Position numbers and translations under genes: made by a program. A DNA stretch of 64,000 nucleotides, from the sequence record PZ386957.1. One strand, given 5' to 3'. The number at the start of each line of letters is the position of its first letter. The first letter of the stretch is position 1. Of this stretch, positions 5,941-45,832 are shown piece by piece. Under the pieces are notes generated by a model. That model did no database searches and was not told the DNA's origin. It saw nothing but the letters and a program-made list of their open reading frames with translations. The stretch is from a phage.

Positions 5941-7380
5941 TTAAATGTCAAACAGGTCCGTAAGCGATGCCACTTTTTCATATTGCAGCTTTGCAGCCGT
6001 GGTAATGTTCTCCAGTGGTTTGACGAAAGTCTTATTGAACAACAAAGACCAGTCCAACCACTTTAACACCTCTGATTCAATTTCTGGAGGAATACGAGTA
6101 CCAGACAACCAACCAAAACAGATTTCTCCAAACGGATTTCGATCTTTGAGCGGTACGATCATAACTTTCTCGCCCTCACGAATCGGATCTAGTCCAAATT
6201 TTCGAGCATTACGATTATAACACAATACGCTCTTAACCGCATACGGACAGCCCTTAATCGGATACCCGTTTGAATCGCTGTATTTCTGTAGGTTGTTTGC
6301 AGATGATACCGCAGCAACCTCAAGATAGTCAAGTTTTCTAAATTCTTGCTCAAAAATACCGTAGTATTCCTGCAATGACTCTTCACCTTCCTGCAACATA
6401 CGACGAATACATTCTTTCAGTGATTTCTGACATGCTTTAGGTGTAGAACTACGTTGCGTTTCTAAGCCCATGATTTTTAGCTTAGGTTCAGCAAAGCGAG
6501 TTCCTTCCATATCCCAAACATTAAGAGCATAACGCTTTTTACCAGTCCAGAATCCACCGATACCCGCAGATTTCAACGGAGGACCAGCAATTGCCTCACG
6601 GTCCATAAACATCAAGTGCTCATAGTTGTTCATGTACTCGCATAACTCGCGATATCCCTTGTCGATAATAGGTTCCATTCGATGTTTACCGAAATTATCA
6701 AGGAAGTCAACAAGTTTTTCGGTATCGTCGAAACGGTCTTCCCCACCAACCTTATCAACAACATTGTTAACCAGCACATAAACGGAGTCAGTATCACAAT
6801 AACGAACATATGCAAAATCGGTTGTTCCGCAAAGTTCGTTTAAGTATTCGTTAATCTTACGCTCAATCCACTGAATTGCAAGCTGACCGAACAAAGTGAT
6901 CGCACTAGCATTACGCAGATCATACAAACGAAATTTCGGATTTCCTACATATTTTCAATGAGTCGCGCAACCAACTCACCCGCCGTTAGGCTGCTGCATA
7001 TCGCTATGCAGATAAGACTATATCACCTATCAACCGAAGTCAATAGCCCACCATTTCGAGCGCCATTAGCTTGCACCCTACACCGTTACACTCATCACGG
7101 TTAGTCGTTAGGCATTTACAGCATTATAGCTGATTTAGCACGGGATTGTCAACCAGTCCGTATACGTTGATATTCCCCGTTTAGATGGGTTTAAGGTGCG
7201 CTAGGATGTTTACGCACCATAAAGGCTGTTAATCAATACCTTTCGTGAAAGTTGGTTTGTGTTACATAGAATAGACTCGTCTTGACATATCGCTAGATGC
7301 CGTTCTAATTCCTCGATTGGTAACGAATCAAGATAGGCCAATTCTTCATCGGTGAAGTCTTTACGATGATCTATATTCAT
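5941..7380 (-). CDS. 43: DNA polymerase C-terminal subunit gp43B, intron-containing: exon 1 = 7212..7380, group I intron = 6948..7211, exon 2 = 5941..6947
   Basis: ATG at 7380 (AAGGAG RBS) overlaps the HEG stop as ATGA; exon 1 encodes MNIDHRKDFTDEEL...NTNQLSRKVLINSLYGA (motif B KxxxNSxYG); joining U7212 to U6947 reads ...LYGALGNPKFRLYDLRN, colinear with T4 ...LYGALGNIHFRYYDLRN; exon 2 carries motif C YCDTDSVYV; spliced product 391 aa. Confidence 0.82.
6948..7211 (-). ncRNA. group I self-splicing intron, ORF-less, within gene 43B
   Basis: 5' exon end GGUGCGU pairs with intron GCGCACC (P1, U-G wobble at splice site); adjacent intron CCUA pairs with 3' exon UAGG (P10); intron ends in G; internal P/Q/R/S-like elements (CGGGGAAUAUCAACG, AAUCCCGUGC, AACGACUAA, GAUAUAGUCU); two in-frame stops inside. 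Confidence 0.75.
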
Positions 7381-43808: not shown

Positions 43809-44120
43809 TTATTCTCCTTTCTTAAACAAATTGTGAAGCCAGTATACAAACGGGATTTCTTTAAACTTGAACTTACCCATATTGAGCATATTCACGCCGA
43901 CACTTAAATCCCATAATTCTTTTGGGGTGATAATATGCCATTGATGGTCATGAAGATAAACACAACCGTGGCCTTTTGCAATAATAACATCAACCCAAAT
44001 GCCTTGTTTTGTTCTAACTTTTGCGGTAATGCCATCCCCATTATCAATGGCAGCATAAGGTTTAAACGCTTCGAAATATCGGCTTCCGTCGTAATTTGTA
44101 TAAATCAAAATTTCTTTCAT
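43809..44120 (-). CDS. hypothetical protein
   Basis: 103 aa; GGGAGA RBS; promoter at 44148-44177. Confidence 0.5.
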   Translation of the reverse strand: MKEILIYTNYDGSRYFEAFKPYAAIDNGDGITAKVRTKQGIWVDVIIAKGHGCVYLHDHQWHIITPKELWDLSVGVNMLNMGKFKFKEIPFVYWLHNLFKKGE

Positions 44121-44147
44121 TTGGTTCTCCCTTGTTTCGATGGGGGT

Positions 44148-44177: not shown

Positions 44178-44438
44178 CTACTTTTTCAAGAATTTTTTAA
44201 TTGCGTTCCAAAGACCTTTATTCTCAGGTTGTTTTGGTTCTTCGATCAGTGTCCATGTTCGACCGTCTAAGTGTGCACAATTTTTAAGGCAAATAAAAAT
44301 CTGGTGTCCCTTATCATCACGGATATAACCACTATTCGCAAATCTTTCATGTGGTGTATATTCATACAGTGTATTTGGTGTAATATACTTGCGGTTACTA
44401 TAAGGTGTCATCACATACATCATGGTATTAACTCCCAT
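44178..44438 (-). CDS. hypothetical small protein
   Basis: 86 aa ORF. Confidence 0.45.
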   Translation of the reverse strand: MGVNTMMYVMTPYSNRKYITPNTLYEYTPHERFANSGYIRDDKGHQIFICLKNCAHLDGRTWTLIEEPKQPENKGLWNAIKKFLKK

Positions 44439-44614
44439 TTATCACCGCGAAGATGAGAACATCCACCATCAAGAAGTATCGTAATACGATAACCTATATC
44501 ATCTTTGATGTAACCGATTGTCGGTGGATTTTCGTCGTCTCGTGTCGGGGTAAAATCATACATCTTTCCGGGCGTAATATCTTGTCCTTTATTGCTATTG
44601 GTATAAACTTGCAT
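44420..44614 (-). CDS. hypothetical small protein
   Basis: 64 aa ORF. Confidence 0.4.
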   Translation of the reverse strand: MQVYTNSNKGQDITPGKMYDFTPTRDDENPPTIGYIKDDIGYRITILLDGGCSHLRGDKWELIP

Positions 44615-44635: not shown

Positions 44636-45334
44636 CTAACCACGTGTATAGTGTTCCAGAACAACGGTCAGATGAATATCTTCTAATAAATCTTTCCAAA
44701 AGTCAACATATGGTTCTTCCGGCATACCGTTTTTCTTTGCCTCTTCACGCGCGAGTTTAACACGCTCGTAGAGATCTTTCAATTCTTCCCGCACATCATC
44801 AAAGGTTCTTTCGCCCATCTTACATGCTAAGATAGAATCACGTTGAGATAGCGGGAATTGTAGATCACCTGTCTGATAGATTTCAAGTAGCTGATAACCA
44901 ACACGCAGAGCATGAGAAAGATCTTTCCAGTTACTGAAATACTTTTCAGATTTGGCTACCTGTTTCTTGAGATAACCAGACAAACCCCACATCCCAACAT
45001 GATAGAATTTATCGCGATGTGTTCGGATGTATTCCCATTCTCTGGAGGATTCAATCAACATGTTACTAGGCGCGTGCACCATGTCAATAGCGCCAATATC
45101 ACCTTTACATGCCAGATTGATAAACCGTTTTAGACTGAACATATTAACGTCAATATCGTCTTTGGTGTTCTTGATACCTTGACCGCTAGTGCTTTGGTCA
45201 TAGTGTTCTTTCATCGATCCTAAGATAATTTCTTTAGCAGTCGGAACAAAGATACCACGATAATCTTTATCGGAATTTTCAGTATTAAGGCCGTATAAGT
45301 GAGATCCGAAGACCATTTTAACCATTGTATGCAT
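44636..45334 (-). CDS. Pol-beta-superfamily nucleotidyltransferase-like protein
   Basis: 232 aa; N-terminal GS-x10-DKD (GSHLYGLNTENSDKDYRG) plus downstream acidic DIDVNM, matching the minimal nucleotidyltransferase signature. Confidence 0.6.
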   Translation of the reverse strand: MHTMVKMVFGSHLYGLNTENSDKDYRGIFVPTAKEIILGSMKEHYDQSTSGQGIKNTKDDIDVNMFSLKRFINLACKGDIGAIDMVHAPSNMLIESSREWEYIRTHRDKFYHVGMWGLSGYLKKQVAKSEKYFSNWKDLSHALRVGYQLLEIYQTGDLQFPLSQRDSILACKMGERTFDDVREELKDLYERVKLAREEAKKNGMPEEPYVDFWKDLLEDIHLTVVLEHYTRG

Positions 45335-45387
45335 AATTAAACCCTCAGTTGATTAAGAGATTGCATCATATCATCATAAAAAGAAAA

Positions 45388-45410
45388 AGCCAACCCTTTC
45401 GGATTGGCTT
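45388..45410 (-). terminator. rho-independent terminator after the GrcA-like gene
   Basis: GCCAATCCGAAAGGGTTGGC hairpin followed by a U-tract on the minus strand. Confidence 0.55.
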
Positions 45411-45415
45411 AGAGT

Positions 45416-45832
45416 TTACATTGATTCCGTAAAGGTTCGAGTAATAATATCTAATTGTTGCTCACGAGTTAAGCTATTGAAGCGGCAAGCATAGCCCGAA
45501 ATTCGTACAGTTAGCGACGGGTATTTTTCAGGATTTTCCAGCGCATCCAGAAGAAGATCGCGATTCATTACGTTGACATTGATATGTTGAGCACCGCGAT
45601 TAGTTCCGATCTCACCGTCAACCATCACCGAACGGAAGCTAGTTGTGTGCAGTGCCAGCGAATCTACGTCTTCGGCAGTGATCACATGGTCTTCTGCGAA
45701 AGTCTTACTAACAATTACTTTAGCACCGATCAGTGCTTTCGGTTCTGATACCAGAATCATAGGCGCGAAGTGTCCACCAATAACAGTACCTTTATGCTCA
45801 CCTTTCATGATTTGAATTGCTTTAAATTCCAT
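45416..45832 (-). CDS. grcA: autonomous glycyl radical cofactor (GrcA/YfiD-like)
   Basis: 138 aa; C-terminus QHINVNVMNRDLLLDALENPEKYPSLTVRISGYACRFNSLTREQQLDIITRTFTES nearly identical in pattern to recalled E. coli YfiD glycyl-radical domain. Confidence 0.85.
   Translation of the reverse strand: MEFKAIQIMKGEHKGTVIGGHFAPMILVSEPKALIGAKVIVSKTFAEDHVITAEDVDSLALHTTSFRSVMVDGEIGTNRGAQHINVNVMNRDLLLDALENPEKYPSLTVRISGYACRFNSLTREQQLDIITRTFTESM

Follow-up and report, generated by a model that had tools for sequence, protein, structure and literature searches.

A short NrdC.11-type nucleotidyltransferase of the RlaP family, lacking the T4-type insert, in a Krischvirus phage

T4-like phages possess the classic tRNA-repair system, in which Pnkp and Rnl1 act against PrrC. 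For the RlaP family of nucleotidyltransferases (Pfam PF10127), an activity in vitro has recently been described and a function has been proposed in print. Two RlaPs from Pseudomonas add one or two NMPs (or dNMPs) to the 3'-OH ends of RNA, are most active with Mn2+ and accept neither DNA nor E. coli proteins as substrates (PMC12776372). Given a mimic of cleaved tRNA, these enzymes act on the 3' end at the break in preference to the natural one; they partly restore the aminoacylation of a tRNA that was missing a nucleotide before ligation, and they also label full-length tRNA and rRNA-sized species, with little NTP specificity (PMC12776372). The role proposed for them is that of countering RloC-like nucleases (PMC12776372); RloC excises the wobble nucleotide, so that simple religation is defeated (PMC3458546). 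It should be considered that, as the authors concede, unselected nucleotide addition would restore just a fraction of the tRNAs (PMC12776372). Jumbo phages show parallel distributions of RlaP and RNA ligases (PMC7824862). The family owes its name to gene neighbourhoods with an RNA ligase (RtcB or a 5'-phosphate ligase) and other repair genes, a setting that is found for some members only.

Among T4-like phages, orthologues of nrdC.11 were matched to the COG3541 nucleotidyltransferase domain in 2006 (PMC1524935), and a preprint of December 2025 assigned T4 NrdC.11 to PF10127/RlaP and, within the similarity network of the family, to cluster 5, whereas the RlaPs tested belong to cluster 1a (PMC12776372). 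T4 nrdC.11 is dispensable for laboratory growth (PMC9825161). Here, we analyzed a 64,000-nt stretch of phage DNA (the window), in which a preliminary description had pointed to a minimal, standalone nucleotidyltransferase (NTase) of the Pol-beta type encoded next to GrcA.

Identity of the gene and earlier annotation

The gene is present in the ORF list of the window as an uninterrupted frame of 232 codons on the minus strand, from an ATG start to a TAG end, and the coordinates of its features are collected in Table 1. Its product starts with MHTMVKMVFGSHLYGLNTENSDKDYRG and contains G10-S11, followed after ten residues by D22-K-D24, with D60 and D62 located 36-38 residues past the DxD. Both the G-S-x10-D-x-D signature and the third acidic residue some 40 residues later, on which the preliminary description had based its assignment, can thus be read in the translation, the latter as D60/D62, where a predicted beta strand begins. 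The assignment itself holds in the family searches as well. The protein matches PF10127 ('RNA repair pathway DNA polymerase beta family') with E=3.2e-14 and 53.7 bits, above the gathering score of 23 bits for this model, such that residues 7-191 cover profile positions 24-198 of 249, and it matches PHROG 388 ('nucleotidyltransferase') with E=2.2e-78, the match being split into two stretches. Together with the conservation seen among 155 homologues (below), these matches rule out a chance occurrence of the motif.

The family is large. A search of 5.8 billion proteins found 317 homologues of the 232-aa protein, with PF10127 being present in 120 of the 120 listed, and HMMER, run exhaustively against 1.84 billion cluster representatives, returned 3745 matches at E<=1e-3. 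A match to the protein is found in 1614 phage records, and the ORF is matched over its full length, at 95-99% amino acid identity, in 59 Krischvirus records; NrdC.11 of RB49, JSE and Phi1 is 96-97% identical to it. NCBIfam and PADLOC returned no match to the NTase protein (PADLOC-DB 2.0.0, which may predate Hailong), and searches of PDB chains with the 232-aa protein and two family profiles returned solely spurious weak matches (haemoglobin, a SAM sensor). We identify the gene as the orthologue of T4 nrdC.11 in Krischvirus; it encodes an RlaP-family nucleotidyltransferase of the Pol-beta superfamily.

As such, the gene is already known. The RefSeq orthologue in Phi1 is annotated as nrdC.11 with the product name 'nucleotidyltransferase', and the names nrdC.11 or nucleotidyltransferase have been in use in RB49-type phages since 2006-2007. 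Given this annotation, the COG3541 report and the RlaP preprint, the present identification is therefore a rediscovery of an annotated gene; its value for annotation is small, and the insert-less architecture described below is a modest new detail. When database names are consulted for this family, it should be noted that many GenBank/UniRef records name NrdC.11 homologues 'thioredoxin' (P0016, P0023, P0038, P0046 etc.; H29, H30, H37-H40) and that one record is named 'HNH homing endonuclease'. No domain match backs either name, and the naming looks like a mistake inherited from the gene name nrdC.

Table 1 Features of the nrdC.11 locus in the window. Residue numbers refer to the 232-aa protein.
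Feature	Position	Strand	Basis and remarks
nrdC.11-type CDS, RlaP-family (PF10127) nucleotidyltransferase, 232 aa	44636..45334	-	TAG included; ORF list, Pfam and PHROG matches, 96% amino acid identity to Krischvirus NrdC.11
N-terminal Pol-beta-type NTase domain, about residues 1-96	45047..45334	-	
Catalytic codon G10	45305-45307	-	
Catalytic codon S11	45302-45304	-	
Catalytic codon D22	45269-45271	-	
Catalytic codon D24	45263-45265	-	
Catalytic codon D60	45155-45157	-	
Catalytic codon D62	45149-45151	-	
C-terminal all-helical domain, residues 116-232, HEPN/KNTase-C-like bundle	44639..44989	-	
Codon of invariant K137, C-terminal domain	44924-44926	-	
Codon of invariant H141, C-terminal domain	44912-44914	-	
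Codon of invariant R144, C-terminal domain	44903-44905	-	
Deletion junction K128...W136, 'KSEKYFSNW'; insert site of T4-type NrdC.11	44927..44953	-	Alignments, insert lengths in 155 homologues, Pfam coordinates, T4-type model
Shine-Dalgarno GAGGG, ATG 7 nt downstream	45342..45346	-	Direct reading of the sequence
Intrinsic-terminator-like hairpin closing the vs.6/GrcA-like gene	45387..45410	-	10-bp stem, GAAA loop, T-run; consensus scan, pattern match only
Sigma-70-like promoter candidate TTGGCT, 17 nt, TG-TATGAT	45365..45393	-	Consensus scan, pattern match only

Active site, fold and the missing insert

For conservation statistics we used an alignment of 155 homologues, which consists mostly of representatives of 50%-identity clusters. 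G10, S11, D22, D24, D60, D62, K137, H141, R144, P161 and K172 are conserved at 97-100% in this alignment and are all kept in the window protein. The G10-S11 and D22-x-D24 motifs are conserved at 98-100%, while of the two downstream aspartates D62 (98%) is placed on a predicted strand (E61-67) and D60 (97%) just ahead of it. An AlphaFold2 model of the 232-aa protein, built from a 39-sequence alignment, reached a pLDDT of 92.4 and a pTM of 0.88 and presents an N-terminal alpha/beta domain, followed by a C-terminal helical domain with a long terminal helix (H210-230). The alpha/beta NTase core of the Pol-beta superfamily is recognisable by structure comparison, and the neighbours of the model in a library of viral structures are phage and giant-virus 'nucleotidyltransferases', with TM values of 0.6-0.84; the predicted fold is that of the Pol-beta nucleotidyltransferase class. 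Two outcomes had been named in advance as speaking against the NTase reading, namely, active-site residues that vary among homologues and a fold assigned elsewhere. The catalytic residues are conserved and the fold as modelled is of the Pol-beta class, so that neither objection applies. The protein was also correctly called standalone, as it contains no other domain.

The gene is under purifying selection, with a dN/dS of 0.17 relative to Phi1 nrdC.11 (23 nucleotide and 8 amino acid differences), and the short form is retained in the same genomic slot of a divergent relative whose protein (P0002) is 56% identical.

What distinguishes the protein is its length. NrdC.11 of T4-like phages usually comprises ~336 aa, and among the close matches listed, only a Krischvirus cluster (P0001; 232 aa, 149 members) and P0002 (234 aa) are short. 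The alignments place the difference between K128 and W136, where ~95-110 residues are absent: the junction segment measures 10 residues here, whereas 150 of the 155 aligned homologues have 70-133. The long-form segment opens with a nearly invariant KYGxKGSR and closes with YGERAR...DWKALSHALR. A model of the T-even-type protein P0016 (pLDDT 87.5) predicts a helix at the start of residues 137-235 and a long helix at their end, flanking five beta strands that are interrupted by a short helix; the insert of T4-type NrdC.11, when searched alone, gave no significant Pfam match. Short forms run collinear with the Pfam profile, residues 6-221 of P0002 covering positions 23-229, while long forms exceed it by ~96 residues: in P0004, positions 19-174 are covered by residues 3-254. 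The insert is therefore specific to the NrdC.11 clade and, with the insert lost, the 232-aa protein has the canonical RlaP domain layout. Accordingly, the word 'minimal' in the preliminary description is apt next to T4-type NrdC.11 and inapt with respect to the RlaP profile, along which the protein is collinear.

Only five of the 155 homologues are without the insert, namely, the window protein, P0002, P0152, P0158 and P0248, and their junctions differ. A neighbour-joining tree, which should not be taken as a robust phylogeny, spreads them over at least four separate branches. In the same tree, the window protein and P0002 cluster with a long form, P0121 (327 aa, 46% identity), which kept the insert but in which the KYGxKGSR and YGERAR motifs are degenerate. 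P0121 is encoded at 6001..6984 of a metagenomic Krischvirus-like contig (L009), a long form in the vs.6-regB slot that is occupied by the short form in the window. It looks like a transitional state between T4-type NrdC.11 and the short form. The short form is derived and the loss of the insert is a lineage-specific deletion; the likely history is that nrdC.11 moved to the vs.6-regB slot, where the insert was relaxed and then deleted. As the lost insert holds motifs that are near-invariant in the long forms, the choice of substrate may differ from that of the T4 enzyme. The absence of the insert is the sole unusual trait of the Krischvirus protein, and the sole new point that it offers.

Genomic setting

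The 3.2 kb around the gene are 92.6-93.8% identical to 59 phage records, among which Phi1 and RB49 are classed in the genus Krischvirus, and the JSE protein is matched at 96% identity. The window belongs to a Krischvirus, a T4-type phage of the RB49/Phi1/JSE kind, and is collinear with Phi1 coordinates ~10.0-72.3 kb. In Phi1, vs.6 lies upstream of nrdC.11, and two small ORFs, a further ORF and regB follow on the downstream side. The slot shared by the window and by the genes for P0002 and P0121 reads endolysin, vs.8, vs.6, NTase and two small ORFs, with regB next where the sequence reaches that far (the window and the P0121 contig). The T6 orthologue, on the other hand, adjoins nrdC.10 and the mobD region, not vs.6.

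The GrcA-like neighbour named in the preliminary description exists. The upstream gene (45416..45832, minus strand) encodes Vs.6, a 138-aa protein that matches the Pfam glycine-radical domain and GrcA models, below their curated cutoffs. Against the NCBIfam GrcA model it scores 107.6 bits, where the cutoff is 170, and the match lies mainly in the C-terminal ~60-100 residues, so that the N-terminal part has diverged from bacterial GrcA. The functional emphasis that was given to this neighbour found no support, and a functional link between the NTase and vs.6 was rejected, since the two genes adjoin only within the Krischvirus-like lineage, have a terminator-like hairpin between them and, in some relatives, are kept apart by a homing endonuclease gene.

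The spacer between vs.6 and nrdC.11 (45335..45415, 81 nt) contains that hairpin and a promoter-like site. The promoter candidate agrees with the consensus at 9 of 12 positions and has the extended -10 TG; it overlaps the tail of the terminator, ~30 nt 5' of the NTase start. At this spacer, the phage G37-3 and the contig L008 carry an HNH/NUMOD4 homing endonuclease gene, and probably the same insertion is found in pEJ01 and AV108, where the region is matched in three pieces. These insertions in relatives suggest that the spacer may serve as a homing site.

Immediately past the 3' end of the NTase gene lie two small ORFs that overlap in tandem (44178..44438 and 44420..44614, both on the minus strand; 86 and 64 aa, respectively). 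They match each other's PHROG families (15978 and 6261) and, by these matches, look like a paralogous pair; a pair of similarly sized small genes is found at the equivalent position in the related contigs L008 and L009. Between this pair and regB, there is a 103-aa ORF (43809..44120, minus strand) with no Pfam or PHROG match. As positions 43871-44127 have no megablast match to Phi1, this appears to be a variable cassette in an otherwise collinear region.

Proposed function, alternatives and comparison with known systems

The preliminary description had offered nucleic acids, proteins and signalling nucleotides as possible substrates. Of these, the biochemistry of the family would favour the first, in the form of RNA 3' ends. 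With moderate confidence, we propose that NrdC.11 adds one or two NMPs to the 3'-OH of RNA and takes part in tRNA repair together with Pnkp and Rnl1; we infer the RNA substrate, the addition of one or two nucleotides and the connection to tRNA repair by homology. In the proposed mechanism, D22, D24 and D62 (and/or D60) would hold two divalent metal ions, probably Mn2+, and the NTP would be bound in the cleft where the NTase and helical domains meet, with the invariant K137, H141 and R144 supplied by the helical domain. One or two NMPs would then pass, template-free, to the 3'-OH of an RNA end, so as to replace anticodon-loop nucleotides removed by base-excising host anticodon nucleases of the RloC type, after which the phage Pnkp and Rnl1 could reseal the full-length tRNA. 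If NrdC.11 does restore RloC-excised nucleotides, the tRNA-repair pathway of T4-like phages would be complete.

Phi1 encodes both pseT (polynucleotide kinase-phosphatase) and rnlA (RNA ligase 1), ~75 kb from nrdC.11. The genus therefore possesses the partner enzymes, so that a role in tRNA repair is the best reading here, by homology only. In the phage to which the window belongs, the two genes would lie outside the window, and we infer their presence from relatives at ~88-95% nucleotide identity. Several points weigh against the repair reading: the RlaPs of measured activity fall in cluster 1a and T4 NrdC.11 in cluster 5, nrdC.11 adjoins no RNA ligase or kinase gene in the phage contexts read, the lost insert may affect substrate choice, and unselected addition would mend only a fraction of the tRNAs. 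Phi1 also contains a second, small 'polynucleotide kinase' ORF of 158 aa next to nrdB (ORF229; L004 18041..18517, outside the window), which could be relevant to RNA-end healing in the genus.

The same 3'-end chemistry could instead act on mRNA, on small RNAs or on the 3' CCA of tRNA, and modulate stability, decay or aminoacylation during takeover of the host, a use that we regard as unlikely. No linkage of nrdC.11 to rnlA or pseT is found in any of the T4-like genomes examined. Indeed, no RNA ligase or kinase gene adjoins the nrdC.11 homologue in T6 or in the mycobacteriophages Aziz and UPIE, and the gene in the window is also without a ligase neighbour, having vs.6, small ORFs and regB nearby. 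In the Krischvirus lineage, the gene is thus clustered with that of an mRNA endonuclease, regB, and the labelling of full-length tRNA and rRNA-sized species by the Pseudomonas RlaPs, with little NTP specificity (PMC12776372), would also fit a use outside repair. However, the tested RlaPs favour the break end of the cleaved-tRNA mimic over the natural 3' end (PMC12776372), the presence of RlaP follows that of RNA ligases in bacteria and in jumbo phages, and the proximity to regB is not conserved, as the T6 gene lies elsewhere.

Nucleotidylation of a protein or small molecule, for instance to neutralise a host toxin or defence effector, is improbable. The models for such an activity would be the MntA antitoxins, which AMPylate HEPN toxins, and the aminoglycoside and lincosamide nucleotidyltransferases; only weak superfamily-level fold matches point in this direction. 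In more general terms, it is very unlikely that the insert-less Krischvirus enzyme has a substrate or product other than that of its RNA-repair relatives, be it oligo(d)A directed at Hailong channels or a nucleotidylated host defence protein, although either, if true, would constitute a new kind of phage counter-defence enzyme. The first of these would make the protein a HalB-like polymerase of oligodeoxyadenylate or another short oligonucleotide, possibly self-primed, serving as a decoy that keeps DNA-gated channels of the Hailong type closed. Among solved structures, HalB is the top match of the model, but at 15% identity over 122 aligned residues and a TM of ~0.43 overall, HalB is not found by profile searches of PDB sequences, and the tested RlaPs stop after one or two additions and require an RNA 3'-OH; we give this version scarcely any weight.

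Finally, that the loss of ~95 residues has left a dead protein or a pseudogene in the making is hardly credible and was rejected, for although a module with near-invariant long-form motifs is missing and T4 nrdC.11 can be deleted without loss of laboratory viability (PMC9825161), the short form keeps all catalytic and other invariant residues at a dN/dS of 0.17, is found as a full-length ORF at 95-99% amino acid identity in 59 Krischvirus records, is also short in the 56% identical P0002, is collinear with the canonical RlaP profile and folds confidently in the model, and forms without the insert are found on at least three further branches.

The comparison with known systems places the protein as follows. 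Kanamycin nucleotidyltransferase ANT(4'), related antibiotic NTases and the JCSG structure 3c18 combine, like the window protein, a Pol-beta NTase domain with a helical bundle. Hailong HalB (PDB 9dbh/9dbi/9dbj) has no detectable sequence relationship to the window protein; it is part of a bacterial defence system, makes oligo-dA processively from a tyrosine primer and is paired with the HalA channel, whereas the phage gene is without such a partner, the window ORF list containing no transmembrane partner gene beside it. Pseudomonas RlaP shares with the window protein the GS/DxD motif with conserved Asp residues downstream and, as described from the crystal structure of PfRlaP, an N-terminal NTase domain and a C-terminal helical domain; in PfRlaP, the two domains form a cleft and the last helix packs back against the NTase domain. 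The gene in the window does not lie in an RtcB/RtcA operon or another ligase operon. The T-even-type NrdC.11 proteins are 41-48% identical to the 232-aa protein over the shared parts and have the invariant residues in common with it, but they carry between 'KQAAK' and 'WKALSHALR' the insert that the window protein is without, and their gene in T6 is found in the nrdC.10/mobD region rather than in the vs.6-regB slot. The Krischvirus short form, the long form P0121 in the same slot and the T4 enzyme together provide a natural comparison for the role of the insert.
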